Origin: Amphiscolops sp. MND2022
Taxonomy: Eukaryota
Direction of reading: 5' to 3'
DNA: 64,000 nucleotides
NCBI GenBank assembly: GCA_964187785.1
Contig: OZ076409.1
Location: 61,506,001 to 61,570,000, forward strand
In this document: positions 27,691 through 51,321 of the stretch, in pieces
Layout: the number at the start of each line of letters is the position of its first letter
How positions within the stretch are numbered: position 1 is the stretch's first letter
Notes under the pieces: model-generated
Seen by the model: only the letters and a program-made list of their open reading frames with translations
Told to the model about the DNA's origin: nothing
Database searches by the model: none
Position numbers and translations under genes: made by a program

Positions 27691-27703
27691 TTATTAAGTA
27701 TAA

Positions 27704-29341: not shown

Positions 29342-29344
29342 TTA

Positions 29345-29581: not shown

Positions 29582-30000
29582 TTATTAAGTTTGAAAGTTT
29601 GGTAGTATAAATTTAGTACTGCATTTTTGAACCCAATTTTATTTGTGAGATACAGTGTGTATAAACAATACGCCGCGCAATAACTGTCGTTTGTCTGAAT
29701 TTGATATTCTGGATAAATACCATTTTTAATATGATTAAGTATATTAAATGGAGGTGGGCATCCATATGAATCAAAATAATTTTGATTTGTAAACATAACC
29801 CAGTGTGTTCCCACTGAGGGATGTAAGTTAACTATACCACTGGTAGTGGTAAATTTATCATCTCTCATGTATATTCCACACTCTGTTATGTTCATGAGTT
29901 TTAAGATTTCTTTTATTTTTACATTGGAAGTTGCTTCGTTTTTTAATCCATATTTTTCAGCAAAGTCTTTGAATGAGAGATAATTGCGAAGCTGTGCCAT
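29578..30000 (-). CDS. Adenain-like cysteine (maturation) protease
   Basis: GTHWV, YFDSYGCPP, QIQTNDSYCAAYC supply the H/D/Q/C catalytic set. Confidence 0.88.
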   Translation of the reverse strand: MAQLRNYLSFKDFAEKYGLKNEATSNVKIKEILKLMNITECGIYMRDDKFTTTSGIVNLHPSVGTHWVMFTNQNYFDSYGCPPPFNILNHIKNGIYPEYQIQTNDSYCAAYCLYTLYLTNKIGFKNAVLNLYYQTFKLNK

Positions 30001-30075
30001 TTATTAGTTATTTTTCATTGTTGTGTATTAATGTTATGTGATGCTGCGCGTGGCTAAACTTATTTCCCATGTGGT

Positions 30076-30624
30076 AAAAATACAAAACCCATAGGCATGT
30101 CATTGTTCTTTGTATTGACATGCCTATGGTAAACTCAAAGCCCATCGGGAGTCCGTTCCACTTAGAGTTTCCACAGCAGAGATTATCCTTTTTAAGAACT
30201 GTGCCATTGGTGATTATTCTCCCATAGCATGTAAGTTGTAACAAAGACTGGGGGACGTTGGATAGAAGTGAACCCCAAACACTCCGGCCGAAGCCTTAAT
30301 TTTAGTAAATGCTATAACCACTAAGCTATGGGAGACAAAGATGTGTTAGTTGTAGTTATATAAGAAGAACGTATGCGCCGGTACATTAACGCTGGTTGTA
30401 CATTAACGCTGGTTGTGCATTAGCGATGGTTGTGCATTAGCGCTGGTTGTGCATTAACGCTGGTTGCAACGTTGACATTAAACTATAAAGGTTAGTGAAT
30501 TTTGCTTCATGGCAAAACACTGTTTTTGATGATTTGTCTTCTAAAAAGTCCTTAAAATCAATGGTTTTGAGGACTTTTAATTTTTGGCGTTTTGTTGGCC
30601 AGTATCGGGATTTCCACTACTACT
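30076..30624 (-). repeat. Right TIR of Polinton (contains second copy of candidate Pol III RNA, 30076-30336 minus)
   Basis: Reverse complement of the left TIR, ending ACTACTACT. Confidence 0.9.
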
Positions 30625-31763: not shown

Positions 31764-32472
31764 GAACAGAAAAAATATTTGAAATAATAAAACAAAACAC
31801 ATACGAGATGAAAAACAGCAGAAAAACGATAACAAAAGCATCATTTGCGAAGAAGAGGAAAGAGAAGAAATGAAGGTGAACTGTAGAAAGACTGAACAAA
31901 ACCGAAAAACAAATTTACGAACATCAAATTATTTAACTGCTGTCGCGTTATGACTAACGCTTAATCAATAATACAAATGCAACTGCAACAATAAAGTGCT
32001 CAACAAAAAACACCTGATTCAATAAAAAGCTCTACAAACGTCCCAGGGATACTCTTCCGTTCCTAATCAAAAATTCCCCCGCAAAAAATACAAAGCTAAT
32101 CAATTCTCTTTGTGCTACCGCGCAGTTTATGATTAAAAACACCTGATTTAATAAAAAGCTCAACGATCATCCCAGGGCTTCAGAGCCGTTCCTTATCAAA
32201 AATTCCCCTGCAAAAATACAAAGCTAATCAATTTCCTTTGAGCTACAGAGAAGTTTATTATTAAAAAAAACACCTGCATAAACAAAGCAGGAATTTGAAC
32301 TAACCTGGAGAAGGAGGGAGCTGAAGATAAATAACTAATGAAGTTGGGCGGCAGCTGAAACTTATAAAAAGGCCGCAGAATAATGGGATAAAAGAAGTTT
32401 CTTCTACCGCGGGATTGCACAAATGAAAAATTCTATTATTTACCGCGGAGATCTGAAATCTAATGCTAAGCT

Positions 32473-32536
32473 CTGATTGGCTGAACGAAAAACAGGCCAA
32501 TCAGGCACTTCGGCAGAAGTGCTGAACCGTTTTTAT
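32473..32536 (+). promoter_or_regulatory. Candidate LTR promoter: inverted CCAAT boxes and TATA-like element
   Basis: CTGATTGG (32473) and CCAATCAG (32497), then TTTTATA (~32530); same in the 3' LTR. Confidence 0.4.
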
Positions 32537-32896
32537 ACGGCGTGCACAGGCTGGAGCTTCATTCTTTCCTCCAACCGGCAGAGCTTCAACACCTAAAAAG
32601 CTCTCTCCCTTTCTCACTTCTACTTCTCTTCCCTTCAACCTGCTCCAACTCTACTTATCTTCTCTCCGCTAAATTCTTGAATTATTTTCCCCTTGGACTA
32701 AAAATTTCTATCTTACTTTCTTCCCCTTTTTGCTTTGGCTCTCAAATTTGCGAAGTCACAATCCCTCTTTCTTGAATTTTCTATCTTAGAGAATTCACCT
32801 CAATCCGACAACAGTCCCAGGTCTGGTGAGTGAAAAAATAACTTAGTTTCTTTTTTGTGGAGATTTCTGATTCTCCCCTTTCTAACTAAATTATAT

Positions 32897-33601
32897 CTTA
32901 GAAAAACTCCACTGATTCTACTCAGTGGTTGTTTAAAATATTTCTTAGAAAAGTTCCACTGATTCTACTCAGTGGTTGTTTAAAATATATCTTAGAAAAA
33001 TTCCACTGATTCTACTCAGTGGTTGTTTAAAATATAACTTAGAACAATTCCACTGATTCTACTAAGTGGTTGTTTAAAATATATCTTAGAAAAATTCCAC
33101 TGATTCTACTCAGTGGTTGTTTAAAATATAACTTAGAAAAATTCCACTGATTCTACTCAGTGGTTGTTTTAAATATATCTTAGAAAAATTTCACTGATTC
33201 TACTCAGTGGTTGTTTAAAATATTTCTTAGAAAAATTCCACTGATTCTACTCAGTGGTTGTTTAAAATATAACTTAGAACAACTCCACTGATTCTACTCA
33301 GTGGTTGTTTAAAATATATCTTAGAAAAATTCCACTGATTCTACTCAGTGGTTGTTTAAAATATAACTTAGAAAAACTCCACTGATTCTACTCAGTGGTT
33401 GTTTAAAATATATCTTAGAAAAATTTCACTGATTCTACTCAGTGGTTGTTCAAAATATATCTTAGAAAAATTCCACTGATTCTACTCAGTGGTTGTTTAA
33501 AATATATCTTAGAAAAATTCCACTGATTCTACTCAGTGGTTGTTTAAAATATATCTTAGAAAAATTCCGCTGATTCTACTCAATGGTTGTTTAAAATATA
33601 T
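32897..33601 (+). repeat. 47-bp tandem array (15 units), each with a CCACTGA-TTCTAC-TCAGTGG hairpin
   Basis: Unit CTTAGAAAAATTCCACTGATTCTACTCAGTGGTTGTTTAAAATATAT; 705 bp = 15 x 47. Confidence 0.95.
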
Positions 33602-34370
33602 CTTAGAAGAATACCAAATAAATGGTTGGCGTTACACTAGTACTTACAAAATCACTTCACCTTATTTACTCAGTAAGCTTGTGGCTTATAAAAAGTCCTA
33701 ATGCTGTCTCTCTACTCAACAGAGCAGTGACTTTAAAAAATTAAAACTCGCCGGTTTAAATTATCACCGGCTAAAACCATTTCTCATTTGGAGCTAATCA
33801 AAAAGCATTATCATTATGAAAGTGTAAAAGCTTACAATTTAGTCTGTAAATTTTATTACGAATTTTCTGATATGTATTAATGCTTTCTGATGTATTTTAT
33901 GAAGCTACTTTGCTCGAAGTCAAAATAAATCCTTCCAATTTACTGCTGAAGTAAATTAAGTAGTTATTTTACTGCTGGATTTAATTAAAGATGGAATAGA
34001 CACTGAGATGCCTGAAAAATTTTACTTAGTACTATTGTCCGTTCACGTGATATAATTCAACATAATTCCTTTCTATACTTTTCCGCTTTTCAGATAACTC
34101 ATTTACATACACTGCCTTGCACTTACTCACGCAACTCCCTTTGTTCGCACGTACACGCAAGGCACTTCCTTTCTAGTATTGCACGGAGTAGGCTTTGAGA
34201 CTTTCTTACTCATTTACAATCAATAATAGAATAGCCACCTGAAAGTAATTTTCACTATGCTACATAAGCTGAACTGACTAATATTGATAACGACTGAACA
34301 GTCCCTTGAAAAGAAAAGGGAACAAAAAGGAAATAGTAAATAGTAAAATCTATCCATGCGTGCGACAAAC

Positions 34371-34387
34371 TGGTGCGACCAGTGAGG
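34371..34387 (+). promoter_or_regulatory. Primer binding site of element B
   Basis: TGGTGCGACCAGTGAGG 3 nt after the LTR. Complement CCTCACTGGTCGCACCA is tRNA-3'-like (elongator Met or Ile-like; isotype uncertain). Confidence 0.65.
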
Positions 34388-35414
34388 CACCCTTCTCTCT
34401 CTTAGTAGAGAAGTAAATGAGCTATCTGTTAGAATCCCTACTCTCAGAAGTTAGGGTTAACTACCTATTTCTCTTAACATTACTTCTGATTTTCTTTTTT
34501 CTCCTACTGCCCCAATATGTGGCTTCCTTGGTCTTTATAAATCATAGAATTGCTAGTAAATACTCCAACAGAATCTCTCCAGCTTAACAGCTTTAGGAAG
34601 AGTCTGTGCACTGCTCAAATTAGTCCTCCCAATCCCCAAAAGGTTAGAGCTAACTTTTTTTTGCAGAAATTCTAGACTACATTCGGTCATAAAACAAGAA
34701 TGAAAATGCTTTCTAACACTGAATCTAAACCTACAGTTGGGATGTTCACTCAAGTCCAGACGGACACATATTAAGGAAAAGCCCGCCTAGGTCTCCTCGG
34801 AGGCTGATTGAAGGCCGTGAGCCCAGTGGGTGTCCCGGAACCTGTGTAGCATTCCAAGGTGGAAACCTAGAATTCTAAGAACTCTAGTGATAGTACCCTA
34901 GTGTTTGCATGATAGTGATCTTGGCCCCGCGCTACTTAATCCTCAGGACGAGAGTGACTGCCTCTGTTTGTTTGTTGTATTACTTCTACAAAAGCCATTG
35001 AAAGGCTAGACTAGCAAATTGAGTACCTTTTGGGACCGACTATACTTCCCACAATTTTTTTTGGGTTAAATTGGAGGATTGGTATACCCCGAACTGCCCT
35101 TTCTGTTAATCATTTAAAGTTAGCGGGATTTGTAAGTATCACCTATTATTTTGGGATTGAAGTATTAAACCCGGAGGACTAACGTCTCCTAAGCTGAGAG
35201 GTGAGATCTTAAAAACTTTTTTTTTTGCATTCTATTGAGTATATGCAAAGCCAGACCTGCCTAGATCTTATCATCTTTAGAACTCTAGCAAGAGCGTGTT
35301 TTACCTTAGTCGTTTGTGGTTATTTACAGAGACCTAGAGTATCCTACCTAATCGAATCTTTAATTTATTATTCGTTGCTACATTTTCTTTCTCTAATAAT
35401 TTCAACAGCTCACC

Positions 35415-36872
35415 ATGGCTGCGCAACATTACTTGGCTTATCCAGATCTCGGCCGAGACCAATTCACAGGAACCGACCCAGATCAAGATCCTGAACAATT
35501 TATACAGCTCATTGAAAAGAAGTTCCGGTTTTCTCATGGTGATACCCCAGCCAACGGACCAGCACTTGATGACTACAACTTCAGAAGAAAATCCTACTTT
35601 GCTACACTATTAAGAGGACCCGCAGCGGAGTGGTTGGAGACCAGCATCACAGACGCTAACACTTGGGCAGAAATCAGAGAAAGGTTCATCACACGATTCG
35701 CAGATGGCAGAAACAAATTTAGACACAGAATGGAAGCCGAACATGTCATCAGACGAGATGGAGAAGAAATAAAGAACTTCCTACACAGAATTAAAATAGT
35801 GGTTGGAAAAGGATGGCCAGATGACCTAGCCGGAGTCGCACAGAACAATAGAGACGCCGAAAGGACAGCTCAAGACAGACAAAGAAGACAGAGGTGCATT
35901 GACTACTCCCTGAGAGGCCTAAGACCTCCAAAGCTGAGAGAAAAGGCACACGAATATCTGATGGACCACCCGAATGCAACCTGGGAGCAATTTTCACAAG
36001 CAGTAATAAACAAAGACCTTTCTTACACTGTAACTACCGCCCTAACTGGCGGAGAGTCACACGCAGACCCACTCATACAAGAAATGCGAGACGACCTAAA
36101 GGGAATTAAACTACAAATAAAGGAACAGATGAACAATACTATCAACGCAGTAGAGAAAACAGTAGACCCTAATGCTACAGGACGAAGGATGGCCACTCGA
36201 TTCTGTGGCTACTGCAGAACAAATGGGCACACACCTAACTGGTGCAGAAAAAAGATGAGAGATGAGGAAGTCAAAAAGGTTCAAAACGAAGCGAATGCAG
36301 AGAGAAGAATAACATTCACCAACGATTACAATAAAAGAACGGGACCTGGGCACGGCTCAAGATTTCAGACAAGAATACCCGATTCAGAGATTCGGAAAAA
36401 TATGGAGGTTGCACATCAACTGGCACTTGCGGGAGCCATGCAAGCAACCCCTTCATGGAACCGAATTGACAGATCTCAGAACAGAAACTTTAACCCAGAA
36501 CGCAGATCTACAAAAACTAGATTCAGCTCCGGTAACCAGAGACTTTCGCAAGAGGTTAGAAGATCTTTTCCCAATAATTTTAACAGTCCCAGAAGCATTT
36601 CTCCAGGACCACAGAGAGCTAGATCTCCCTTTAACTTCAACAGAGACCGGCCTAACCCTTTTAGTCGCAACATACAACCCCTTCCACCAAGGAATAACTC
36701 AGTTTTTCAGAGACAACAACAAAACAGAAACGAAAGACCCAACACCCCTATTCAGTCTTACGAGCAAAGATTCCCAAAAACTAATGACATGGGAAGATCC
36801 AACACAGTACAATTCTTAGAAACTGACTACTCAGTGAATTCAGTAGCCGATTTTCGTCCTTTAAACTACTAA
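35415..36872 (+). CDS. gag: Gag (485 aa)
   Basis: Kozak CACCATGG; retrotransposon Gag helices (LLRGPAAEWL...WAEIRERFITRF); CCHC knuckle CGYCRTNGHTPNWC; intact. Confidence 0.9.
   Translation: MAAQHYLAYPDLGRDQFTGTDPDQDPEQFIQLIEKKFRFSHGDTPANGPALDDYNFRRKSYFATLLRGPAAEWLETSITDANTWAEIRERFITRFADGRNKFRHRMEAEHVIRRDGEEIKNFLHRIKIVVGKGWPDDLAGVAQNNRDAERTAQDRQRRQRCIDYSLRGLRPPKLREKAHEYLMDHPNATWEQFSQAVINKDLSYTVTTALTGGESHADPLIQEMRDDLKGIKLQIKEQMNNTINAVEKTVDPNATGRRMATRFCGYCRTNGHTPNWCRKKMRDEEVKKVQNEANAERRITFTNDYNKRTGPGHGSRFQTRIPDSEIRKNMEVAHQLALAGAMQATPSWNRIDRSQNRNFNPERRSTKTRFSSGNQRLSQEVRRSFPNNFNSPRSISPGPQRARSPFNFNRDRPNPFSRNIQPLPPRNNSVFQRQQQNRNERPNTPIQSYEQRFPKTNDMGRSNTVQFLETDYSVNSVADFRPLNY
36860..36866 (+). promoter_or_regulatory. 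-1 ribosomal frameshift slippery site T TTA AAC (gag-pol)
   Basis: Heptamer is in X XXY YYZ phase of gag, one codon before the gag stop; the -1 frame is the pol frame. Confidence 0.75.
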
Positions 36873-39800
36873 TGTCTCCGAAAAATAAAAGTAGCAGCAG
36901 TGCCCCACTAAAATTTAGTCTTAATCTTTATTATTTTGCTGCCGGAGACTCACAAAAAGATAGTGGCTTGGAAATCGAATTTCTACTTGACACTGGGGCA
37001 ACATCTTCAATCATCAACTATAGGACATTTAGAGAACTTTGCCAATTTCAACAAGACCTCGAACTCAGCAGGAGCAACAACACAACTCGGAACTACTCTG
37101 GTCAAATCATCCCTATGATGGGATACATTTCATTAAGACTCTATTATGACTCCGACGGCCAACATAACTTCCCTCTGACAGTCTGGATCACCGAGATGAA
37201 GACACAGGACCTTCTTGGAATGAATTTCTGCCAAGAGCAGATCAACAAAATACATTTCGACCTCCCCGGCAAAGAGCTCAAGAGACCTCTAAATACCTTC
37301 TGCTATGGTAGCCTTCAACTAAACAAAATATACCCCTATGTTTCGCAAATATTAACAGTCAAAATCCCTCACTCCATGTACATTGAGCCAAAAACAACAA
37401 GATGCTACAAATTTGCCTTCGAAAACGCGAAGAATTCCTTCCCTCCCGGATCTACATTCCTTCCAAACAGAAAGGCAGTTTCTACAGGACTCAACTTTAT
37501 AAACGTCCTTTGTACACGGTTTGAGAAGACCTTGCCAATTGTTATGGAAAACAACAAGAACCATACAATCACACTAGTTAAAGGAACTATTGGATACTCT
37601 ATGCTAGACGTCATTGACAAAGAAATCCCAAAATACCAGATTAGGAATCCTACCGAACTCACTTACACCATTTCAAGCGAAAATGAAGAATACAACGATT
37701 GTTTCTTACTACACGCTACTATCCCTTCACAAGATCTTAAAGATTGCATCAGAATAGAAGGAGGAAATTCTACAACAATACTCAACAGACCAGACTCTAT
37801 TATCATCTTTGTTCCGGCTGACCTAAAACCAGCCAAAGGCTTCTCTAAAGAAATTTTAACGAAAATACCTTCATTGAAAGACTCTTGCGCAAAACAGAAA
37901 CCTCAAAAAGGCGACACAATACCCTACTGGGATACAACTCTAAGGCGATTTATATACGTCCTAATCACTAAGGCTAAATCGAAAGACAAAATCGACCCAC
38001 AAATCTTAGCCCAATCGCTGGAAACACTAAAAGCCCACGCCAAATTGAATAATATCAAGACTGTTTCTATGTGACGAGAAGCCTCAGAACTAGAAGACTT
38101 TCAATGGCAAGATGTTACGCAAATTATTCAAGACGTCTTTGCCTATTCAGAAATGCAGCTCCGAATCTATACCAGAAACGAGCTAGATGTCTATGCAATG
38201 ACTACCAGAGGAGACCCTGAGTATGCATTAGAAGATGAAATACAACAATTTTAAGAAGAATTTCACTTAAAGCACAGAGAACTGGAAACTGACTTTACTA
38301 AAGATGCAAAGTCCTGCCAACCACCTTGTGACGAACAATTCAAGATATTTAGGCCCAAAGAAGACAACGAACGACTCATTGAATACTATCTTCAATATCA
38401 GAATAAAGAAGCAGTTCAATACATCAAAGAATTCGACTTTCGCTACTCGGACCTCACAGACGGAGAACTTGTTCTCCTCATAGACCTACTGATGGATGCT
38501 AGAGATGTATATTCACAACACAAGTTCGATGTTGGGAAAACTAGACAGAAATTCAACATTAAACTAGAACGGGGAGCAATTCTGAAGAGACAGAGACCTA
38601 GTAAAGTACCACTACACCTACGAGAAAAGTTAGAAAAACTACTAACACAACTCAAAGAGGCTGACTTCATAAGAGAGATGGGCGATGACGACGAAATGGG
38701 ATCTCTATTCGTAAACCCCATCATCTTACAACCAAAACATGATTACGTCAAGCTGATCATAGACGCAAGATACCTGAATTCAGTGACTGATCTAACAAAC
38801 TACTCCTGGCCCTTGGAACCAATCCAAACCATAATGACGCTCATCAACAGGAAAATATTCTCAGTAAGCGATCTCTCTTGCGCTTTTCACCAAGTCTCAC
38901 TAGACGAGCCCACACAGAAGCTCACTAGCTTCATAATTGGCGGTAAACAATATACATTTACCAGAGGATTCTACGGACTTAAAGGATTACCCAGCTTCTT
39001 CAGCTGTATGATGACAATCCATTTCGAACCCCTCATCAAGAAGAAACAAGCAATTACCTACATAGACGACACGTTAATGCAGGCCAAAAACAAACAAGAG
39101 ATGTTCACAGTGATCCAAGAATACCATTACCTACTACGGAAAGCAGGACTCAAGGCAGCGCCCGACAAAACACTATTCTTCTTGCGAAAAGTCAAGTTCC
39201 TGGGACATGTAATTGCAGCAGAAGGACTACAACCTGTAGCTAAACGAGTCAGGGATCTTCACAATCTTAAATCGCCAAAAACGAAAACTGAGGTAAAGAG
39301 CTTCCTAGGGGCTCTGGGATTTTATAGCTGTTACATCAAGAATCTACATGTCGACAGTCGACCGTTCTACGAGCTGACCAAGAAAGATACAAACTTTTGT
39401 TGGAAACAAGAACACGAAGACCTCTTCCTAGAAATAAAGAAGAGAATCAGCGAAGACACGGTTCTTGCAGTACCTTCAACGAAATACCCATTTCATATAC
39501 ACGTAGACTCGTCCAACGTAGGGACAGGATGTATACTCATACAACAATTTCCAGAAGGAAAACGGATCATCTCTTTCAATTCCAGAATTTTCGCAAAAGA
39601 AGAACAAAAGATGTCCACACTACATAGAGAACTATGTGGAATAGTCTCAGCACTACAAACATACGAGCACTATATCATTGGATCTCCCTTCCCGATCTAC
39701 CTATATTGTGACCATAAACCAATTCTTTATCTCTGGGGACGAAAAGGACAGGTTTCACCGCGATTCTTTAGGTACCAAGTGATTGTTTCCAAGTTTCCCA

Positions 39801-42349
39801 ATCTAAAGATAATATGGACGCCGGGAAGCAACCTAGCCTTCCCCGATATACTCAGCCAAAATGTCTCAATCGAAGAACACAAGAAACACCAACTTAGCCA
39901 CAAGATCCTACCCAACGACATACACTTCTTCGACGAGCACGGGACTCAAGTTCACTACAAAATCAAACACGAGGAAAACGACGAAACTTCAAAGAATGAC
40001 TTCTACCCTATATTGTACGAAAAGGGGGATGAACGGAAAATCCTTCACCTACAAAACGACGGTAATAACTCCACAGTTAACAATGTCTACGAGGAACCTA
40101 ACCTGCCGAAGATTGAATCGGCACAAAGTTGTTTTGACGCCGGAAAAGAAATCAGAAATTACGAAGAGCTACGAATCAGATCTGGCACGCAAGAAAGCAC
40201 CTCCGATATATCACAAAATACTTACAGCTCGGTTAACAGCGATGCTGACGACGAAGCCCCCGCAAATGATGAACTTCAAGAAGTGAACGAAACAAATTAT
40301 GGGCCTAATACGAGTTCCCCGACACTCAAACAATGTACCTCCAAAAATGATAAGGCAATAGAAAATTACGAGCTCCTTAAAACCACAGCAGGAAAACAAA
40401 AGACATCAACTCGAGAACTCATAGGCCAACTCGATAAGATTTCAAAGAAGCAGAGCTAAACGTCACAACAATTTCACAAGAACAAATTAATGACCCAGTC
40501 CTCAGCGTGGTCCGACAATGGATGAAGACAGGAAACAAGCCTACGCCAAAGTCACCAGAGTTACAACACTCGAAAGGCCTCATGCGCTACTTTCAGGAAT
40601 TCGACAGACTAACTATAGAAGAACAAGGAAACCTCCTCTGTTACAACGAGCCAACTGACGACCCGGCAGACGAAAATCTGAGAATCTGCCTACCTCTCTC
40701 TCTATTTCTAGCTTGCTTCCGAATGGGACATTACAATGACTTGGGCGGCCACATGGGAGCTGAAAAAACCTACCTAAATGCTAAAAGATTTTACTACTGG
40801 CCTGGAATGCACGACTGGATCTGTGCCCTCACACAGGATTGTGTTAGCTGCCAATCTAACAAATCGAAACAACGAAGTACCACTGGAAGACTGTGAAACC
40901 GAGACCCCAGTATTCAGAACAGTTCATATCGATCACAAGGGACCACTTAATCCTCCCAGTCGCGGAAATTCACACTGCCTTCTTATCATCGACGCCTTCT
41001 CACGTTACCTGATGGCATACCCAGTCAGAGACACAGGAGCACAATCTACAATCAACGCGATGGAAAAATGGATTATGCACTATGGCATCCCTCAATCTAT
41101 CATACACGATAGAGGAACAGCTTTCGTAAACACGGAATTTGTCAATTGGACTAAAGAGTTTGGCATCACACTGCGACCTAGGACTGCACACTCACCCTGG
41201 ACAAATGGCAAAGTCGAAACCCAAAATCAACATATTGCACGATACTGGAGAAATTTCTTAAACGAATCAGGAAACAACTGGGCCCAACTAGCAGCTAAAT
41301 TTGCATTCGCCCACAACACAAGCGTCAACTACACAACTGGAAAGACCCCCTACGAAATAGTGTTTTGCAACAAACCACAAATACCTATGAGTCTGAAGCT
41401 GGGACTCTATAGGAACAAAAACAAGAACTGCAGATCACAGTTCTGTCACGGATTACCTCCTCATTGCCATAGCGAAAACCAAGTCAAAAACGATTTACTA
41501 AATGGATTACTACGACCACAACTATCACAAAGCCTGTTGGAACGAGAAACAGACTTCAAAAAGGTCTACTCATCCACATACGAAAAGTGCAGAAAACAAA
41601 CAGCTCGATCACACGCCTACAGAAACAGGTTTAAACTCGGAAATCACCTCAACATCGGACAAAAGGTTCTGCTAGAAAACCATCGCAAGGATCTCTCCAA
41701 AAGCCAAAAACTTCAACAACTGCGATTAGGACCTTTTACGGTTACCAAGAGAATTACCAATACGACCTACCAAATAACAGAAGATAAAAACCCCGAGAAT
41801 CTCCGAACTGTACACAGGAATGATCTAATAGAATACTTTCCTAAAGAGGAAACACTCTCCCCTCTTATCGAAGAGTACACTACTCCCCACCGTGGAGACA
41901 CTGATTTTTATAATAATCTGATCAAGGGAAGAATTGAACAACTTAATGTTTCAGAGCCACAAACACCCGGAGATCTCTGCATATTGCCAGTACGGAATCA
42001 ACAAAACCAAATACCTGCCCGCAAAAGAACGCAACCCCCCCAGAGCACAGACTCTGGTATCATCTCTCCAGAAAATCAGTTGTCGACAACCCCAAAGACC
42101 CCCGATCAGCCTCCTACCTCACATCCTCGAGACACGGCAACCCCTATCCTGACGTAAACACAACGCCAACCAACACCCCCAACTAACACCCCGGCATCTT
42201 CTACCAAGTCCACGACTCCCTTACAAGAATTAAGAAGAGCAGTTGCCAGACAACTCGAAAGAAATCCACGTTATCAACGAGCACAGCCCAATCAACCAGC
42301 ACAACAGTCCGTCCTTCGCGAAAGGACTCGAATTGGTTACAAAGAATAA
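36872..42349 (+). pseudogene. pol: Pol: protease - (dUTPase-like?) - macrodomain - RT - RNase H - integrase; disabled
   Basis: LLDTGA; TYIDD; HVDSS...ELCG...YCDHKP; HYNDLGGH...CVSC; HIDHKGP, HDRG, GKVETQN. Stops at 38072, 38252 and 42155; frameshifts near 40430 and 40870; natural end LRERTRIGYKE* at 42349. Confidence 0.92.
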
Positions 42350-42356
42350 CCTTACC

Positions 42357-42743
42357 ATGCCATGCCATAAAGTATATCTAAATTTGTCCTGGCAAGTTCC
42401 ACGAGAACTTCAGTCCTTAGGCATTCTCAATGTAACAATCACAAAAATCTACTGGACCTACACAAACAAGCTAGTTAGGATTTGCTTCTACTCTAGAGAC
42501 CCAGACCCGAGCGATAATAAACAACCAACGCCCCGAAAATCAAACATACCTATACGCCCAGAATCTAAGACCTTTGCTCTTCTATATCAACACCTCGCAT
42601 ACTATGCAGTCACACACCACGACTCTATCCTAGAAGAACTCCTATCCTACATGCCTACCCTAATACCTGACCTACAACCTTCTCCACCTAATACTCAAAA
42701 GGACCTATTCTGCTGCTCCACTATCTCCTCACCTAGCTCCTAG
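42357..42743 (+). CDS. Accessory ORF B1 (128 aa, small-protein family)
   Basis: ATG 8 nt after the pol end; VYLNLSWQVP...ITKIYW...VRICF...IRPESKTFALLYQHLAYY. Confidence 0.55.
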   Translation: MPCHKVYLNLSWQVPRELQSLGILNVTITKIYWTYTNKLVRICFYSRDPDPSDNKQPTPRKSNIPIRPESKTFALLYQHLAYYAVTHHDSILEELLSYMPTLIPDLQPSPPNTQKDLFCCSTISSPSS

Positions 42744-42893
42744 CCGGCCGCAATTTCATGATGCAAGACTACTGTATATCTACATTATAATTATATTTGA
42801 TTATCCTTTGTGCAACCCCGTAGTATACTTTATGAAATAGCAGACGAAGACAGAAGCAAATAAAAACTGGTTGAGTGGAGTAGCCATAAAGGC

Positions 42894-43493
42894 CTACTCC
42901 AGCTCTACAAAGCCCCCCAAACTAGCCAACTTCTCTAGCTGGCTACGCCTCTCATCGTTGGTCCAGGCGGGCCACAGCCGACGAAACTGGCCCCTCTGAT
43001 ACGTAGTTAGACGCGAATACCCCAGGATATAACTCCTGAGCTGGAACAGGAGAACTTCCCCCTGCCCCGCCAGAAGTCTTGACTCCCAGGGTCGCCCATA
43101 CGACTGCAGCAAAAACGATGCAAAAGCATCCGAGATGGGGGCACGGACGACCATGTACCCCCGCACCCCCCTTGTGTCTCTATTAGTCTCCACCCATCCC
43201 TCTAGCCGCCTGACATCGCCCCAATCATATAGATCCATAAAGGTCTCTCTGTCGTAGTTGTTGAGATGACCCGGTATCAGCCTACCGGCCAGACGACTAA
43301 CAGGCGGAGCGGCAGAACTCACTGGTACTGATGTGTCCGGACGACTAGGCCCGGCCACAGACATTACTGAGGAAGACATAACAGCAGCAGACGGAGACGA
43401 GACGACGACAGTAGATGTAGTAGAGGCAGTAACGCCCGACGACCCACTAGGGGCAAGATTATTAGTATTATTGCTGCTCATTACTAAATGCAA
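42894..43493 (-). CDS. Antisense accessory ORF (Ser/Thr-rich N-terminus plus globular C-terminus)
   Basis: 199-codon open frame, GC-rich against the A-rich element; probable ATG at MSSNN. Confidence 0.55.
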   Translation of the reverse strand: MHLVMSSNNTNNLAPSGSSGVTASTTSTVVVSSPSAAVMSSSVMSVAGPSRPDTSVPVSSAAPPVSRLAGRLIPGHLNNYDRETFMDLYDWGDVRRLEGWVETNRDTRGVRGYMVVRAPISDAFASFLLQSYGRPWESRLLAGQGEVLLFQLRSYILGYSRLTTYQRGQFRRLWPAWTNDERRSQLEKLASLGGFVELE

Positions 43494-43755
43494 AGTAGCT
43501 ATTTATAAAGTCATGTAAACCTAAATAAATATATTGATTTAATACTATTACGTCTATACTTGCTTACCTAGTATTCCGAGATTCAATATATTATCTGTCC
43601 TTCATTTCTCGGTAACCAACCACGAACTCCTACGAAGTCGTGTTAATAATTTTTATTATATGACTGTTCTCAAACGCAATGAAAATAACTGATGATTCCA
43701 TTCTCAGATTTGCTATGTTTGATGAACAAAAACCACGAGGCAAAATCACACACAG

Positions 43756-43977
43756 ATGATCATAATCTTCAAGATCGACAACCGTCTTTCACAAATTACA
43801 GATATATAGAAGGAACCCTCAACACAGAACATCATCATACAAGCCTACGCAATAGCAGAAGAAGAAAGTGAAACCTACACGTGTGTGCCAGCTTCACCTA
43901 TCTACCCACTACTGGAGAGCTTGCTATATAACAACACCCCTACTGAAGTCTTCACTAGAGCCAAGTCAGTCATTTGA
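43756..43977 (+). pseudogene. Accessory ORF B2 (small-protein family) with internal TAG at 43807
   Basis: MIIIFKIDNRLSQITDI*KEPSTQNIIIQAY...TCVPASPIYPLLESLL; its TGA overlaps the next ATG (TGATG). Confidence 0.45.
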
Positions 43978-44372
43978 TGTCCTCTCCCGCAGTAGCTGTC
44001 TTCCGCGGAAATAATTACTACTTCCACACCCAATTTCAACCTCCTGTTCCTTGGACGCCCATACAACTCAAGGGCCAATACGAAATACAGTCAATCTTCT
44101 ACGAGATCACTACCTCTGCGATTCAAGTTCGTATCCTCACGCCAGAAGACAAAGAAGCTCTGGTCCTCTTCCTTATTCACTTCGGGTCCAAAGAATACGC
44201 CTACTTATTCCTTTCGTTTAGGCAGTACATACTCCAACACCCCGCTGTCCTCAAGGACAAGGCTTTCGACGACCTGGTTTATTTTATGGACATCACTCTC
44301 ACTTCCAACCCCTTCGAAGAAGAAGTTAGAATCAAATACCTTCACAGCCTAGTCGACACCTATGATGTTTAA
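43977..44372 (+). CDS. Accessory ORF B3 (small-protein family)
   Basis: EIQSIFY...IQVRI...IHFGSKEYAYLFLSFRQY; its end overlaps the start of the next ORF. Confidence 0.55.
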   Translation: MSSPAVAVFRGNNYYFHTQFQPPVPWTPIQLKGQYEIQSIFYEITTSAIQVRILTPEDKEALVLFLIHFGSKEYAYLFLSFRQYILQHPAVLKDKAFDDLVYFMDITLTSNPFEEEVRIKYLHSLVDTYDV

Positions 44373-44706
44373 GATTCAACTCAAATTTCTCTGGCGCCAC
44401 CCTGAAACGAACACCCTCTTAGAAATTCTCTCTATCGCTTGGAAGGACAGCGCTCCTGTGATCCAAATAGAAATCCATAGTCTTCGACCACACCAACCGG
44501 GTCACTGGCTCATCCCGGTAGACACCGACTCACAAGAAGCTGCCGCTCTCGCACAATCCCTCAAGGAATACAGACAGATAGCATACTTAAATCACAATCA
44601 CCCTCTTACACTCTTCCTCCTCAACAAACTCATCGACTTCATCGACTCGAGAAGAAAAAACAAACCCTCTCCCAGTCTGCAATTCATCAGTGACAATTAC
44701 AGCTAA
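44362..44706 (+). CDS. Accessory ORF B4 (small-protein family)
   Basis: IQLKFLWRHP...ILSIAW...IQIEI...VDTDSQEAAALAQSLKEY. Confidence 0.55.
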   Translation: MMFKIQLKFLWRHPETNTLLEILSIAWKDSAPVIQIEIHSLRPHQPGHWLIPVDTDSQEAAALAQSLKEYRQIAYLNHNHPLTLFLLNKLIDFIDSRRKNKPSPSLQFISDNYS

Positions 44707-44766
44707 ATCTTCACAAATAGTTGAAGTTAGTCTCTTTCAAATACTCTTCATAGGCACTCTTTTTCT

Positions 44767-45054
44767 AACAGTAGTGAGGTTACTACTATAAAATTTTAGC
44801 CTCCGCTTAGCGGAGTGCCTGCTAAGCTGCCGGTTTGATATTACGGTCTGCTTTTTTACGGTCTTACTCCTGGATCCATTACCTTAACTACAACTAAAAG
44901 AATAACAGACTTCTCTTTTTCTTAGGTACGTGTGAACCGTGTGAACAGTAGTGAGGTTACTACTATAAAATTTTAACCTCCGCTTAGTGTTGTACCAGCT
45001 AAGCTGCCGGTTTGATATTACGGCTTACCTTTTTACGGCCTTACAACGGATCCA
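44767..45054 (+). other. Two ~112-nt copies of a structured (pseudoknot-like) RNA element upstream of env
   Basis: Copies at 44767-44878 and 44944-45054; stems conserved, loop of hairpin 2 diverged. Confidence 0.6.
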
Positions 45055-45112
45055 CATCTTCGAATAAAAGATTTCACCTGATTGATTTTGCGAAGACTGC
45101 AAAATTTCAAAA

Positions 45113-47194
45113 ATGAAACTATTTTTTCTACTCTTTTTATGCGCCTATTACGCGCCCGTTGTGATCTCACAATGCCCTACGCCAAACCTCGCTAGCGTTG
45201 CTAAAAAATTGCGAGTAACTCATTTCGACTGCGGCGAAATGACCCAAAACAAGCTCTACGCATTGAATCAAGTAGAGCAATGCAATGTGGCCCCAGAAAA
45301 CTTAGAAGTAAGTCGTGCTAGCGTAACGTTATACACTAAACACTTTCGCCGCACTATCAACGCCACTATGTGCCGTGTGAAACATCAGAGTGAAGAATGG
45401 CATTGTGGTCATCACGACCACTCCAGTATGTCAATTCTACACAACGGAATCACTAGCGATCTTTCCTTGTCCCCCGAAACCTGTAAGGTAATGGGTGAAG
45501 GAAAAGAAGTCATAATCCATGGACAACTCCTTAGATTTAAAAAAGGAGTGAAACAAGTACAGACGAGAAACGCCAAATACGGAAAAAGTTGGGACGGGGT
45601 ACGCGACCCTGATACCCGCAATGAGTGCAAAACAGGAGGATGGATCAAACGCGAAACTTTCGAATCTCACATTCAAGACGCTGAGTTATCAGTCAAGACC
45701 CGAGATGGAAAGGTCCTCACACCGTTTCAGATGGTCCTTCCCTGTCCTTTGGAGCAACTTGGTTGTGAAACGACGTCACTGGACCCCTACGCATACACAT
45801 GGGCAGAACCAGATAATTGCGTGCTTGCAGTACGATTCCACTACCAAATTTTTATTCGAGGTCTACAACAGACCACAAAAGTACTGCAACAAACCCGACG
45901 ATGTATACCCGACCAACTACCAATCCCTGTACGTTTCAATCCAACTTGGTGGCTTCGACATGACCTCCGGCAGAAGACTCGGCATCTCCATGGGCGAGAC
46001 ATCTAAACTTCAATATTACTCACCTGACGATGGTTCTGGTAATGGCCGACTCCACCTCTTCAGAGGACCCAGCGACTCTAACCCCAATACACCACATTAT
46101 CTCAACATGGATTACGAGCTCTACCAAGGAACAAAGTTAGATTATCTCTTTTTTCAGAGCACCCGCTTACTTGAAGCTTCAGAAATCCAGCTTTTGAAAG
46201 CTCAATGTGAACAGGAAAGAACACAAATCCTCACCATCTTGATGCTCTCCATGGAAAACCCACGACTTGCCGGATACATGCTCACGGGAAATCGCTCAAT
46301 GTTCATGAACACAGATGGTAGCCTAGCATGGCTCTACCACTGCCCAGAATCCCACTCACCTCTTCACACGATGAACCAATGCTACGACCGCGTACCCATC
46401 TTCTACAAAGGAGTGGTCGCCTTCGTGGACCCCATCACCCGACAGACTTATCCTAATGCGAACGTGCACAATTGCAGCGATCGCATTAAGAACCTCTTCC
46501 AACTGGACATGGAAGACAAAGATTCCTGGTTTACCCTCACTCTTTCACCCGAACACCGTGACCGACCTGCTATCTTCGGACCCAAGGACATCCAACCACT
46601 GATTACCAGATCCTTTCCTGGATCACAAGACGCAGGAATGTACACGCCGAAACAACTCGGAATTTTGGGATAACATCCTCATCAGCGCAGCTTCACGAAA
46701 TGCCCTCCAGAAGTTTTCACGAGAACTCATCATCCCTTCAATGGCCCATATCGGACCCGAATCATTTGCGTATTATGCACCCCGTACCGATTTTTACGTT
46801 GACGGTATGATATCACCCGACTACTTCAAAAATCAATTCCTCGAAACCTTCGGAAGTATATCGTACGTCCTCGAACTCTGCGGCGCGTATTTTGGCGCCT
46901 TTCTTTTTTATTAAATTCGTTATAGATATCACGGTCCTAGTCTTCCGCTATTTCGAACTTCGTCACCTTACTGGTAATACCCTGAGCTTCACTAAAACCT
47001 TGCTCAGTGCTTCGTACAATCTTTTCTTTACCTCCGTTTTAACTTCCGTATTCACCCCGCGGGCCCCTCTCGAGGATAGCATTGAACAAAGAACAAAAAC
47101 GGAAGACGAAATAAAAACGGTAGAACTTCAAAACCTGAAACAAAAAGAGGAATCACTATACCCCTCTGTACAGAGCTTCGTAGCTCCAATTTAA
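45113..47194 (+). pseudogene. env: Envelope glycoprotein, chuvirus/herpes-gB-like (class III) type, frameshifted
   Basis: Signal peptide MKLFFLLFLCAYYAPVVIS; Cys pattern HFDC...EQC...MCRV...HCGHHDH...TC...C; C-terminal hydrophobic segments. Frameshifts near 45830, 46660 and 46890. Confidence 0.75.
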
Positions 47195-47230
47195 AAGTTA
47201 AACCATTCTCATTGAATATACTACTTTTAG

Positions 47231-47812
47231 CAATTAGACTCAATCTTCGACCTACCAAACCTGGACGACGACAACCCTAACCCTAACTTAGAGGATGACT
47301 TAGAAATTGAGCCCTTATCGCCATCAGACCTGCTGTCCCCAGTATCCCCCACAACAATCAACTCCCTCCTAGACCCACCAGACTCAACTGTTCCTTCTCC
47401 ACACCCAAGGGCACATACAACAACGCCCTCGTCAACTACATCAGAGCGACCCCCCTTCCCGCTGTCGTTCACAGAAGAGGTAGCACCTATACCATCAACC
47501 CAACATCCACCCCGGTTCGGCGGAAAAGATATAAGAAGAATCTTCCCCAGAAAACACCACCACCAATGGAACAACGAGATAGCGGACCAGGCACCACTAA
47601 ATAAACAACACAAAAGGGAATACTATACAAAAAGGGCCAGATATGTTAAAAGGCCTAGGTTCAATGCAGATTTAAAGTATACCCTACTTCCTCAATTCTC
47701 ATCATGGAACATCGTTTTCTGGGACAACAAGAGACAAGAATACACTATAGAGAACCCTGCACTCAAAGGACAAAGACTAACTGTCCCCCTAAGATCAATA
47801 TCCGCACAATGA
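47231..47812 (+). CDS. ATG-less 193-codon Pro/Ser/Asp-rich then basic open frame (possible spliced exon)
   Basis: Open from just after CTACTTTTAG (acceptor-like) to TGA at 47810, which overlaps the ATG of the TRAF ORF; absent from the ORF track because it lacks a start codon. Confidence 0.45.
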   Translation, partial: QLDSIFDLPNLDDDNPNPNLEDDLEIEPLSPSDLLSPVSPTTINSLLDPPDSTVPSPHPRAHTTTPSSTTSERPPFPLSFTEEVAPIPSTQHPPRFGGKDIRRIFPRKHHHQWNNEIADQAPLNKQHKREYYTKRARYVKRPRFNADLKYTLLPQFSSWNIVFWDNKRQEYTIENPALKGQRLTVPLRSISAQ

Positions 47813-48753
47813 ATCATAGGCTAAACCCTAATGCTACGCCCTTCATCCCAAAAAATAATCATTCTTCCCATATTACTACACCCGACTGGCCCCCCATATC
47901 GAAACCAGATGACCCAGAAGAACAAGAGACTCTCGAGGGAATAGAAAGATTGAGCAAATGGATATCAGAATTAGAAACCTCAACCATATCAAGTTGCCAA
48001 AACGAAAAACTACTAGAAACCCCGGTCCTTCGGAAATCATTTCCATTAACAGAAACCTTACAGCCTAAAACGAAGTTTGATGGCAAAGTGAAACAACTCT
48101 ACAATTCGGCAGAAGAAGCAAAGACTAGATGTCTACAACTAGAGTCCACAATATCCAACCTACAAGCAACCATAAAATACCAATGCTCCCTCCTCAGAAA
48201 AACTAATATCATCGATGGGAGAAACAATGAACCCTTCCTGTGGCAGATTCCCGCATTTTCTACGCTATATCGAAAAGCAAAAACCTTCCCGGATGAACCA
48301 CTAAGCAACTTCAAATGTAGCTTCACCAGCCCCATCTATACTACTCACCTAGCAGGCTGCAAAATATCACTTAGACTGTTTCCATATGGGATAAACCTCT
48401 TTCGGGGAACCCACTCTTCCATTTGCTGTGAGCTCCATCTTAGCGACTTCACCCTCCCTCGAACATGGCCTTTCGACCGACAATTAGAAATCTCCATCAT
48501 AGATCAAAAAGACAAAAACAACAAGTGGTCTACCTACTTCCCAAACAACTCTGACAAGAACAACCAAGATGACACCCACGCCGGCACCTACACACTTCCT
48601 GACCTCATGAGAGAAGATTTCATCCCTCACACAAAACTATTGGTCAACTTCAGGGAAGCCTTTTTAAACAACGACTCTGTAATCCTCCAAATTAAATTTA
48701 ATGAAGCCCCCTTTAAAATCCCAAGTGCTAAAGAGACCCCCCTTCATTCCTGA
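47809..48753 (+). CDS. PAM2 motif + coiled coil + TRAF-C/MATH domain protein
   Basis: LNPNATPFIP; heptads (CLQLESTISNLQATI); FLWQIPAF...FTSPIY...GCKISLRLFPYG...GTHSS...WPF...ISIIDQ...FIPH...FLNNDSVILQI; no RING. An upstream in-frame ATG exists at 47704. Confidence 0.85.
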   Translation: MNHRLNPNATPFIPKNNHSSHITTPDWPPISKPDDPEEQETLEGIERLSKWISELETSTISSCQNEKLLETPVLRKSFPLTETLQPKTKFDGKVKQLYNSAEEAKTRCLQLESTISNLQATIKYQCSLLRKTNIIDGRNNEPFLWQIPAFSTLYRKAKTFPDEPLSNFKCSFTSPIYTTHLAGCKISLRLFPYGINLFRGTHSSICCELHLSDFTLPRTWPFDRQLEISIIDQKDKNNKWSTYFPNNSDKNNQDDTHAGTYTLPDLMREDFIPHTKLLVNFREAFLNNDSVILQIKFNEAPFKIPSAKETPLHS

Positions 48754-48789
48754 CCTACCCCAGATACCGAATTCTTTTTTCTCCCTGCC

Positions 48790-48800
48790 AGGGGGGTGAG
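48790..48800 (+). promoter_or_regulatory. Polypurine tract of element B
   Basis: AGGGGGGTGAG just before the 3' LTR. Confidence 0.7.
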
Positions 48801-48801
48801 C

Positions 48802-51321
48802 TGTCGCGTTATGACTAACGCTTAATCAATAATACAAATGCAACTGCAACAATAAAGTGCTCAACAAAAAACACCTGATTTAATAAAAAGCTCTACAAAC
48901 GTCCCAGGGATACTCTTCCGTTCCTAATCAAAAATTCCCCCGCAAAAAATACAAAGCTAATCAATTCTCTTTGTGCTACCGCGCAGTTTATGATTAAAAA
49001 CACCTGATTTAATAAAAAGCTCAACGATCATCCCAGGGCTTCAGAGCCGTTCCTTATCAAAAATTCCGCTGCAAAAATACAAAGCTAATCAATTTCCTTT
49101 GAGCTACAGAGAAGTTTATTATTAAAAAACACCTGCATAAACAAAGCAGGAAATTGAACTAACCTGGAGAAGGAGGGAGCTGAAGATAAATAACTAATGA
49201 AGTAGGGCGGCAGCTGAAACTTATAAAAAGGCCGCAGAATAATGGGATAAAAGAAGTTTCTTCTACCGCGGGATTGCACAAATGAAAAATTCTATTATTT
49301 ACCGCGGAGATCTGAAATCTAATGCTAAGCTCTGATTGGCTGAACGAAAAACAGGCCAATCAGGCACTTCGGCAGAAGTGCTGAACCGTTTTTATACGGC
49401 GTGCACAGGCTGGAGCTTCATTCTTTCCTCCAACCGGCAGAGCTTCAACACCTAAAAAGCTCTCTCCCTTTCTCACTTCTACTTCTCTTCCCTTCAACCT
49501 GCTCCAACTCTACTTAACTTCTCTCCGCTAAATTCTTGAATTATTTTCCCCTTGGACTAAAAACTTCTATCTTACTTTCTTCCCCTTTTTGCTTTGGCTC
49601 TCAAATTTGCGAAGTCACAATCCCTCTTTCTTGAATTTTCTATCTTAGAGAATTCACCTCAATCCGACAACAGTCCCAGGTCTGGTGAGTGAAAAAATAA
49701 CTTAGTTTCTTTTTTTGTGAAGATTTCTGATTCTCCCCTTTCTAACTAAATTATATCTTAGAAAAATTCCACTGACTCTACTCAGTGGTTGTTTAAAATA
49801 TTTCTTAGAAAAATTCCACTGATTCTACTCAGTGGTTGTTTAAAATATAACTTAGAAAAATTCCACTGATTCTACTCAGTGGTTGTTTAAAATATATCTT
49901 AGAAAAATTTCACTGATTCTACTCAGTGGTTGTTTAAAATATTTCTTAGAAAAATTCCACTGATTCTACTCAGTGGTTGTTTAAAATATATCTTAGAAAA
50001 ATTCCACTGATTCTACTCAGTGGTTGTTTAAAATATAACTTAGAAAAATTCCACTGACTCTACTCAGTGGTTGTTTAAAATATATCTTAGAAAAATTTCA
50101 CTGATTCTACTCAGTGGTTGTTTAAAATATTTCTTAGAAAAATTCCACTGATTCTACTCAGTGGTTGTTTAAAATATATCTTAGAAAAATTCCACTGATT
50201 CTACTCAGTGGTTGTTTAAAATATAACTTAGAAAAATTCCACTGATTCTACTCAGTGGTTGTTTAAAATATTTCTTAGAAAAATTCCACTGATTCTACTC
50301 AGTGGTTGTTTAAAATATATCTTAGAAAAATTCCACTGATTCTACTCAGTGGTTGTTTAAAATATAACTTAGAACAATTCCACTGATTCTACTCAGTGGT
50401 TGTTTAAAATATATCTTAGAAAAATTCCACTGATTCTACTCAGTGGTTGTTTAAAATATAACTTAGAAAAATTCCACTGATTCTACTCAGTGGTTGTTTA
50501 AAATATATCTTAGAAAAATTTCACTGATTCTACTCAGTGGTTGTTTAAAATATATCTTAGAAGAACACTAAATAAATGGTTGGCGTTACACTAGTACTTA
50601 CAAAATCACTTCACCTTATTTACTCAGTAAGCTTGTGTCTTATAAAAAGTCCTAATGCTGTCTCTCTACTCAACAGAGCAGTGACTTTAAAAAACTAAAA
50701 CTCGCCGGTTTAAATTATCACCGGCTAAAACCATTTCTCATTTGGAGCTAATCAAAAAGCATTTTCATTATGAAAGTGTAAAAGCTTACAATTTAGTCTG
50801 TAAATTTTATTACGAATTTTCTGATATGTATTAATGCTTTCTGATGTATTTTATGAAGCTACTTTGCTCGAAGTCAAAATAAATCCTTCCAATTTACTGC
50901 TGAAGTAAAGTAAGTAGTTATTTTACTGCTGGATTTAAATAAAGATGGAATAGACACTGAGATGCCTGAAAAATTTTACTTAGTCCTATTGTCCGTTCAC
51001 GTGATATAATTCAACATATTTCCTTTCTATACTTTTCCGCTTTTCAGATAACTCATTTACATACACTGCCTTGCACTTACTCACGCAACTCCCTTTGTTC
51101 GCACGTACACGCAAGGCACTTCCTTTCTAGTATTGCACGGAGTAGGCTTTGAGACTTTCTTACTCATTTACAATCAATAATAGAATAGCCACCTGAAAGT
51201 AATTTTCACTATGCTACATAAGCTGAACTGACTAATATTGATAACGACTGAACAGTCCCTTGAAAAGAAAAGGGAACAAAAAGGAAATAGTAAATAGTAA
51301 AATCTATCCATGCGTGCGACA
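48802..51321 (+). repeat. 3' LTR of element B (2520 bp)
   Basis: Direct repeat of 31941-34367. Confidence 0.95.
49757..50555 (+). repeat. 47-bp tandem hairpin array (17 units)
   Basis: 799 bp = 17 x 47; same unit as in the 5' LTR. Confidence 0.95.

Follow-up and report, generated by a model that had tools for sequence, protein, structure and literature searches.

Structure of the element and its copies

We analysed a 64,000-nt stretch of the genome of the acoel Amphiscolops sp. MND2022 (contig OZ076409.1, positions 61,506,001 to 61,570,000), referred to here as the window. It contains a 19.4-kb element that encodes gag, pol, an envelope gene (env) of the glycoprotein B (gB) type, and seven accessory open reading frames (ORFs) under purifying selection. 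We regard this element as a decayed copy of a recently active Ty3/Gypsy lineage and probably as a complex endogenous virus, which would use spliced subgenomic RNAs and stop-start coupled translation. Its structure, copy number, gene order, the selection on its genes, and one exact loss of a GT-AG intron were observed directly in genomic DNA. The features are as follows (window coordinates).

31937-31940, no strand: left target-site duplication (TSD) CTGC; right copy at 51322-51325
31941-51321, plus: element, between matching long terminal repeats (LTRs)
31941-34367, plus: 5′ LTR, 2.4 kb, TG...CA ends, 129-bp duplication inside
32825: candidate splice donor in the 5′ LTR
32887-33616: 47-bp hairpin-forming tandem array of the 5′ LTR (folding z -3.85)
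34371-34387, plus: primer-binding site (PBS), complementary at 16/17 nt to host tRNA-Met(CAT)-type genes (3′ end plus CCA)
35415-36872, plus: gag, 485 aa, open
36860-36866, plus: slippery heptamer, X XXY YYZ relative to the gag frame, immediately upstream of the gag stop
36827-42349, plus: pol, with protease (PR), macrodomain, reverse transcriptase (RT), RNase H, and integrase (IN) with H2C2 and an SH3-like end
37754-38180, plus: TARG1/OARD1-type macrodomain inside Pol, degenerate at the glycine-rich loops
42357-42743, plus: ORF A, 128 aa, paralogue 1 of a small beta4-alpha2 family, beginning 7 nt past the pol stop
42894-43481, minus: antisense ORF B, 195 aa, with a low-complexity N-terminus and a conserved C-terminal domain of ~105 aa of no known family
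43756-43977, plus: ORF C0, with 73 codons in sisters and a premature stop near 43807 in the window copy
43977-44372, plus: ORF C, 131 aa, paralogue 2, start overlapping the C0 stop
44362-44706, plus: ORF D, 114 aa, paralogue 3, modelled with AlphaFold2 (AF2)
44717-44731, plus: mini-exon of three codons and GTTAGT donor, giving the ORF E start in sisters; no start codon in the window copy
44770-44849, plus: RNA unit 1, predicted H-type pseudoknot with two hairpins, within the intron that the ORF E message lacks
44947-45026, plus: RNA unit 2; relatives have 1-4 units
45113-47194, plus: env, chuvirus/gB-type (Monjiviricetes fusion), PF24664 E 1e-31
47231-47812, plus: ORF E second exon, with an acidic/Pro-rich N-terminus, a basic helix and a predicted SH3/Tudor/KOW-like barrel
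47809-48753, plus: PAM2-like motif, coiled coil and TRAF-C (MATH) domain, start overlapping the ORF E stop
48790-48800, plus: polypurine tract (PPT), just before the 3′ LTR
48802-51321, plus: 3′ LTR, TG...CA ends
49747-50562: 47-bp hairpin array of the 3′ LTR, two units more than in the 5′ LTR

The LTRs with TG...CA ends, tRNA PBS, PPT, and short TSD are those of a Ty3/Gypsy element. Outside the 47-bp array, the two LTRs differ at 14 of 1,698 positions (99.2% identity), and the 4-bp TSD is perfect in 16 of the 19 copies examined, including the window copy. The PBS match was counted by eye against tRNA genes predicted by ARAGORN on one tandem array (G000:C12), which may hold pseudogenes. The tRNA-Met(CAT)-like units form a long tandem array at ~35.59-35.67 Mb of G000:C12 (L072), and a T-arm pattern has 573 genome matches, many of them degenerate. 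A GGTGAGT donor-like site lies directly before the 47-bp array and is also present in the LTRs of subfamilies A, B, and C.

Compared with single natural sisters, the window copy is decayed. Three internal stops and two frameshifts interrupt its pol, three frameshifts its env, and a premature stop its C0. This dead copy belongs to a family that is not old. ORF C has 101 matches in the genome, of which 62 are near full length at ≥88% identity, and 56 of these 62 are stop-free (hand count). Several sisters have LTR pairs with 99.6-100% identity, and two subfamily-B copies are 99.4% identical across 17.8 kb.

Four subfamilies (A-D) were distinguished. The order A, antisense B, C0, C, D, env, E, TRAF is kept in 18 of 19 A-D-type loci, scored wherever the genes are present, with deletions or an insert in individual copies; the 19th locus is a decayed remnant in which C, D, and env keep their order. 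More distant families, 65-69% identical in RT, show the same layout of gag-pol, three to four small ORFs, env, E, and a MATH gene. None of the 61 candidates scored in this genome matched an env cluster of 850 members at more than 59%, so the lineage is probably present in more than one host genome.

Non-autonomous derivatives of 6-7 kb have been amplified with their own 4-bp TSDs (L097-L098, L095-L096, L101-L102). They keep the RNA units plus env and TRAF fragments, and two of the three have an intact 182-aa ORF that is 50% identical to an eighth accessory ORF of subfamily D. The latter, 176 aa long and of no known family, lies between antisense B and C0 (L044:3629-4156, L047:316-843). We rejected a second MATH domain in this 176-182 aa ORF, since 99-183 of 300 shuffles scored as high and a PDB search gave no support. 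Family E (L061) has different tandem repeats before the small ORFs and before env, and a remnant of the antisense ORF C-terminus.

Selection on the accessory genes

The ratio of nonsynonymous to synonymous substitution rates (dN/dS) was estimated with a pairwise codon model from unsaturated pairs among subfamilies A, B, and C; subfamily D and family E were saturated and were not used. The values were 0.054-0.135 for ORF A, 0.019-0.063 for C, 0.031-0.081 for D, 0.056-0.095 for E, and 0.15-0.16 for TRAF. The core of antisense B gave 0.093 (B-C pair only, the other pairs being saturated), and C0 gave 0.044 (B-C pair), with a value of 0.23 for the A copy that includes a frameshift. Values for gag, pol, and env were 0.034-0.058 (gag, 0.053-0.058; env, 0.034-0.048). 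Comparing subfamilies B and C, an excess of third-position changes was found in 7/7 accessory ORFs, and for each of the seven the annotated frame is the only stop-free one of six in both subfamilies. Thus, all seven are under purifying selection, with dN/dS of 0.02-0.23.

These data decide against a passive accessory region made of nested insertions or neutrally carried host fragments. Single sisters do show nested inserts and internal deletions. This explanation is nevertheless refuted by the shared order in 18 sisters and in the families 65-69% identical in RT, and by dN/dS far below 1 for all seven ORFs, and we give it next to no probability. An earlier sequence-only reading had proposed an undescribed, env-bearing Gypsy lineage with about seven accessory ORFs, and named sisters lacking this region, or unrelated insertions within it, as grounds for dismissing the idea. 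The sisters recovered are colinear and selected. The seven ORFs are A, antisense B, C0, C, D, E, and TRAF. The matching LTRs with the CTGC duplication at both flanks, gag, the glycoprotein, the antisense ORF, and the duplicated RNA structures of that reading were likewise borne out, with the details given above and below.

gag, pol and the macrodomain

Gag matches PF03732 (E 8e-5, below the curated cut-off). The slippery heptamer at the gag-pol junction is present in 19/19 copies, with a hairpin downstream (z -2.16). Because it lies in the gag frame in every copy, a -1 frameshift from gag into pol is predicted. In sisters, pol is a single open frame of 1,832-1,868 codons, so the breaks inside pol of the window copy (stops near 38072, 38252, and 42155; frameshifts near 40440 and 40865) are due to decay. 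The frameshifted pol of the first reading therefore survives as the programmed -1 site at the junction, and its internal breaks do not belong to the gene.

The domain order PR-RT-RNaseH-IN, as detected by Pfam, is that of Ty3/Gypsy. The best solved match of the RT is Ty3 (E 1.6e-28), followed by foamy (1e-21) and MLV-type (3e-16) enzymes. The Gypsy-type Pfam set PF17917, PF17919, PF17921, and PF24626 was found, and RVT_2 and Peptidase_A17 were not. A long bridge separates RNase H from the integrase zinc finger, the region where 'ancient errantiviruses' carry a 'mini' domain after RNase H. In a FastTree analysis of 113 unnamed RT rows (rows covering >330 query residues), a long-stemmed group stood apart from generic Gypsy RTs.

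The macrodomain predicted earlier in pol is a TARG1/OARD1 homologue (E 4e-19 to 4j5r), though degenerate; TARG1 chains are its only significant matches, and it escapes Pfam detection. It is confined to one supported RT clade, where 27 of 27 macro-positive rows fall in a clade of 35 rows, the other 8 being too short to show the domain. We take the Lys and Asp of this fold to be catalytic and its glycine-rich loops to bind ADP-ribose. The Lys is kept in 3/3 sequences, the Asp position is Glu in 2/3, and two glycine-rich loops are partly occupied by charged residues. Because these loops are partly lost, activity as an ADP-ribose eraser is doubtful, and an altered binder or a structural insert of Pol appears more likely.

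Small accessory ORFs

ORFs A, C, and D and their family E/F relatives form one paralogous family: with leave-one-group-out profiles, 21/21 sequences beat all 300 shuffles. Membership was not supported for C0 (65 and 76 of 300 shuffles as high) or for the 71-72 aa ORFs in families E/F (22-205 of 300 across C0 and these ORFs). Four paralogous small ORFs had been claimed; three of them stand, and C0 does no better than shuffles. A profile search of 1.84 billion proteins returned 72 relatives of the small paralogues, all resembling these ORFs and none named. The AF2 model of ORF D shows four strands followed by helices (mean predicted local distance difference test, pLDDT, 80). The weak top Foldseek matches of the small paralogues, compact beta4-alpha folds, were the nucleic-acid-binding proteins MRP1/MRP2 (E 0.7, not significant). 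The ESM Atlas gave no usable match for ORF C and antisense B. One subfamily D copy carries an insert of ~0.7 kb inside antisense ORF B.

Stop-start overlaps occur at C0/C, C/D, and E/TRAF in subfamilies A-D, and ORF A starts 7-10 nt after the pol stop. These overlaps and the short pol-A gap suggest that the downstream ORFs may be translated by termination-reinitiation.

Probable splicing of ORF E

ORF E had been described as a frame lacking an ATG. The frame at 47231-47812 is indeed open, but in sisters its start is supplied by a three-codon exon across a GT-AG intron. In subfamilies A-D, ORF E follows a pyrimidine-rich AG directly; in families E, F, and K, it has its own ATG. Downstream of ORF D, an ATG lies nine bases before the GTTAGT donor in 16 of 19 copies; the other three are two copies without the donor and the window copy, in which the start codon is missing. 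In a rearranged natural copy (G000:C13, L103-L105), exactly 44726-47230 is absent, from GT to AG, so that the ATG runs in frame into E. The precise joining of this ATG to the acceptor of E places the start of the frame in the mini-exon. The copy records a spliced RNA from which env and the RNA repeats had been removed.

The conserved end of ORF E has 111 relatives and is predicted to form a basic helix and a five-stranded barrel (pLDDT 79.5). Its weak fold matches are nearly all SH3, Tudor, KOW, and chromo barrels.

Duplicated structured RNA

The duplication comprises 112 nt (44767-44878 and 44944-45054) at 87.5% identity. In 16 aligned units, 93.8% of the cells of stem 1, the crossing stem 2, and the two hairpins are paired, and both partners vary in 8 of the 24 pairs; 0/500 shuffles and no slid control scored as high, the structure having been derived from the same sequences on which it was scored. 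Single-sequence folding was not significant (z -1.2 to -1.3), so the support comes from covariation. An Rfam scan of 31900-49000 gave no real match (best E 0.4). The last hairpin has 204 genome matches, and those among the 100 listed lie mostly at element positions.

Three sampled non-autonomous derivatives keep 2-4 units. Because these 6-7 kb copies retain the units after losing gag, pol, and most accessories, the data fit a role in cis. The repeats may serve as an export or packaging signal for unspliced RNA, read by ORF E or a host factor in the manner of Rev and the Rev response element (RRE) or of a constitutive transport element (CTE); we put this forward tentatively, with the odds somewhat against it.

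Another account assigns expression to the host. Spliced-leader (SL) trans-splicing at pyrimidine-AG sites would make the accessory genes monocistronic, and the RNA units would protect or mark the downstream RNA rather than promote export. The genome has 2,355 matches to the published SL of Symsagittifera roscoffensis, in which 30.2% of genes are reported to be trans-spliced (PMC9911081), and most RNA units start just past a pyrimidine tract and AG. Against it, the only processing event of which DNA preserves a trace is a GT-AG splice in cis, and several downstream ORFs are already explained by stop-start overlaps. We consider this account rather improbable; it is compatible with the complex endogenous virus proposed above. 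Copies of the SL sequence are arranged in tandem, ~904 bp apart, and also lie scattered directly before mRNA-like sequence (L093, L094; G000:C1 ~16.23-16.42 Mb), which suggests that the scattered copies are retrocopied trans-spliced mRNAs. The RNA unit is unlike the two SL-bearing loci viewed (L093, L094).

TRAF-C gene

The TRAF gene had been placed from 47704; its most likely start is instead 47809, overlapping the ORF E stop. Its TRAF-C domain matches TRAF5 with E 2e-22 (profile) and 4e-7 (single sequence), and PF22486 and PF21355 score above cut-off. The coiled coil and TRAF-C are as in the TRAF family; no N-terminal RING or zinc fingers were detected. The PAM2-like motif scores 13.5 and 12.8 bits with PF07145 against a cut-off of 20, and the regular expression, chosen after the motif had been seen, matched 26 of 20,000 shuffles. 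The motif is N-terminal in 4/4 A-D subfamilies and absent from families E/F. Thus, of the supposed PAM2-TRAF gene, TRAF-C is solid and PAM2 is supported at motif level only. More broadly, host-modulating genes for ADP-ribosylation, TRAF signalling, and PABP had been proposed; these labels hold less firmly than proposed, as the TRAF gene has no RING or zinc fingers, the macrodomain is a degenerate part of Pol, and the sub-threshold PAM2 motif is limited to A-D.

Among the 150 listed MATH matches, 7/7 sampled top-scoring loci lie inside such elements, six of them with gag-pol. With at least 150 TRAF-C matches in the genome and all seven sampled borne by elements, this family could inflate counts of host immune genes. 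Host TRAF genes, and hence the donor of the element TRAF-C, were not found. There is about an even chance, in our estimate, that the RING-less protein acts as a decoy in host tumor necrosis factor (TNF)-receptor or innate signalling.

Envelope glycoprotein

In sisters, Env is ~714 aa long, with an N-terminal hydrophobic leader, 16 Cys, and one transmembrane (TM) segment. Their frames are open, and that of the window copy is frameshifted near 45830, 46655, and 46905. We call PF24664 gB-type following the description of chuvirus-like Env in PMC13524379, a label resting on sequence and not on fold; this type is already known in errantiviruses. As Env matches PF24664 only, the baculovirus F-type Env of classical insect errantiviruses (gypsy, ZAM) is absent. 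The element has the gag, pol, and env (F or HSV/gB type) of errantiviruses in the broad sense used in that paper.

The element could instead be an intracellular retrotransposon with selected cargo, in which the accessories serve particle assembly, RNA handling, or evasion of silencing, and Env no longer acts, or never acted, between cells. In its favour, all six accessory proteins checked lack a TM segment, the small paralogues show the weak MRP1/MRP2 matches noted above, non-autonomous derivatives spread without intact env, and virus particles and expression are predictions from the sequence. On the other side, env is as constrained as pol (dN/dS 0.034-0.048) and is open in 55 of the 61 best-scoring copies, a set biased to intact ones. 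We judge this alternative distinctly improbable.

Proposed expression and comparison with known elements

We propose that the lineage is a complex endogenous virus expressed as follows. The full-length RNA would yield Gag and, via -1 frameshifting, Gag-Pol; tRNA-Met would prime reverse transcription; and Env would let particles move between cells. The accessory genes would be expressed from spliced subgenomic RNAs and by stop-start coupled translation, as in complex vertebrate retroviruses. The ORF E message would lack the pseudoknot repeats, since they sit in the env-containing intron. We infer the accessory functions and infectivity from the sequences.

Several observations weigh against this proposal. 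The expression of every gene is predicted from DNA. The spliced form of ORF E is known from one rearranged copy, the sole forward match to the junction genome-wide; a reversed control pattern also had one match, and the weight of this copy lies in its context, not in the match count. Pseudoknot stem 1 is almost invariant, which limits the covariation to stem 2 and the hairpins, and the core motif of the unit is absent from four E/F/K copies and is thus not a lineage-wide requirement. Fold matches were not significant for ORF E (Z up to 3.4; Foldseek E 0.12 or more) or ORF D (best Z 4.7), which does not establish a new fold for either. Env has no sequence match in the PDB and no R-x-K/R-R furin site. 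Finally, selection shows that the ORFs benefit the element's own copying; it does not show an action on host pathways.

A bolder version would have an invertebrate Gypsy lineage arriving independently at the organisation of complex retroviruses: a still-spreading enveloped endogenous virus of acoels with a Rev/RRE-like switch (ORF E acting on the intronic pseudoknots), a selected antisense gene, an expanding small-protein family, and a dominant-negative TRAF accounting for most TRAF-C domains encoded in the host genome. We consider this full combination unlikely.

A gB-type Env on Gypsy elements is known and common among the 'ancient errantiviruses' (Chary and Hayashi, PMC13524379). As described there, these share with the acoel element the Ty3/Gypsy pol, the gag-pol-env order, the chuvirus/gB-like Env, near-identical copies, and a tRNA PBS. 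In contrast, the acoel element adds ~2.8 kb of genes between pol and env and 1.6 kb after env, has a macrodomain in Pol, and reaches 16-19 kb. The prefilters of that survey (pol-env gap ≤1,000 nt, region ≤10,000 nt, with later manual extensions of 3-5 kb) disfavour such large elements. Its taxon list does not include Xenacoelomorpha, its seven supplement files hold no acoel name, and the terms 'accessory', 'macro', and 'TRAF' do not appear in its main text.

Partial precedents are the planarian Burro/GYPSM1 elements and fish endogenous retroviruses (ERVs). According to PMC6431247, Burro elements are giant, env-bearing, and Gypsy-like, with MATH_TRAF_C, sometimes a separate accessory ORF, and a proposed meddling with host apoptosis and ubiquitin systems. 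There, BIR, BCL2, ankyrin, and Env form one polyprotein of ~4,900-5,100 aa with env between gag and pol. In the acoel element, gag, pol, env, and TRAF are separate ORFs and not a single giant polyprotein, and env is a downstream gene among small spliced or coupled ORFs; this comparison is by layout and not by RT. Macro-domain ORFs are reported in epsilon-like fish ERVs (PMC4977317, citing Basta 2009) and accessory ORFs in foamy-like fish ERVs of up to 17 kb (PMC6431247). Macrodomain capture and accessory genes within the provirus are thus shared, but these ERVs are Retroviridae, whereas the acoel RT is nearest Ty3. The element has neither a retroviral RT nor a class I surface/transmembrane (SU/TM) Env; it resembles a complex retrovirus in layout and is no member of Retroviridae.

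In the Gypsy-class element Cer1 of C. elegans, an extra protein, CERV, is reported to be needed for nuclear export of unspliced RNA (PMC10309623). The role that we propose for ORF E and the RNA units has a precedent here by functional analogy, not by sequence or fold. LTR elements of bdelloid rotifers with extra ORF3s (PMC5408684) and Oikopleura Tor elements (PMC4402516) show captured ORFs, or env expressed from spliced or internal-promoter RNAs, in invertebrates; most have one extra ORF, and they are not known to include a selected array of seven accessories. We found no published account of this accessory set or of an acoel Gypsy element with env; Repbase/Dfam or the repeat supplement of PMC9911081 may hold the family unannotated.

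Genomes rich in accessory genes, with regulatory genes expressed by splicing, are commonly regarded as typical of vertebrate retroviruses. The presence in one Gypsy lineage of seven accessories under selection, an antisense gene, and a structured RNA within an intron indicates that the same design can arise outside Retroviridae and that size-filtered surveys miss such elements. The element also extends env-bearing Gypsy elements to acoels and adds three protein families and one RNA motif that had no match in the libraries searched.

Other elements in the window

The window contains further mobile elements upstream. A Polinton/Maverick-like element at 15533-30624, between inverted repeats of ~0.6 kb, encodes a double-jelly-roll capsid, an A32 packaging ATPase, an integrase fragment, and a protease-like ORF (29578-30000) recognised by eye, without a Pfam match. 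Another element (5552-13232) has direct repeats 98-99% identical and ~6.6 kb apart, with an 872-codon ORF (7674-10292) without a Pfam match. Nested inverted repeats with 17-bp and 11-bp units at 2271-4026 and 430-1441 are probably small foldback elements or resemble miniature inverted-repeat transposable elements (MITEs).

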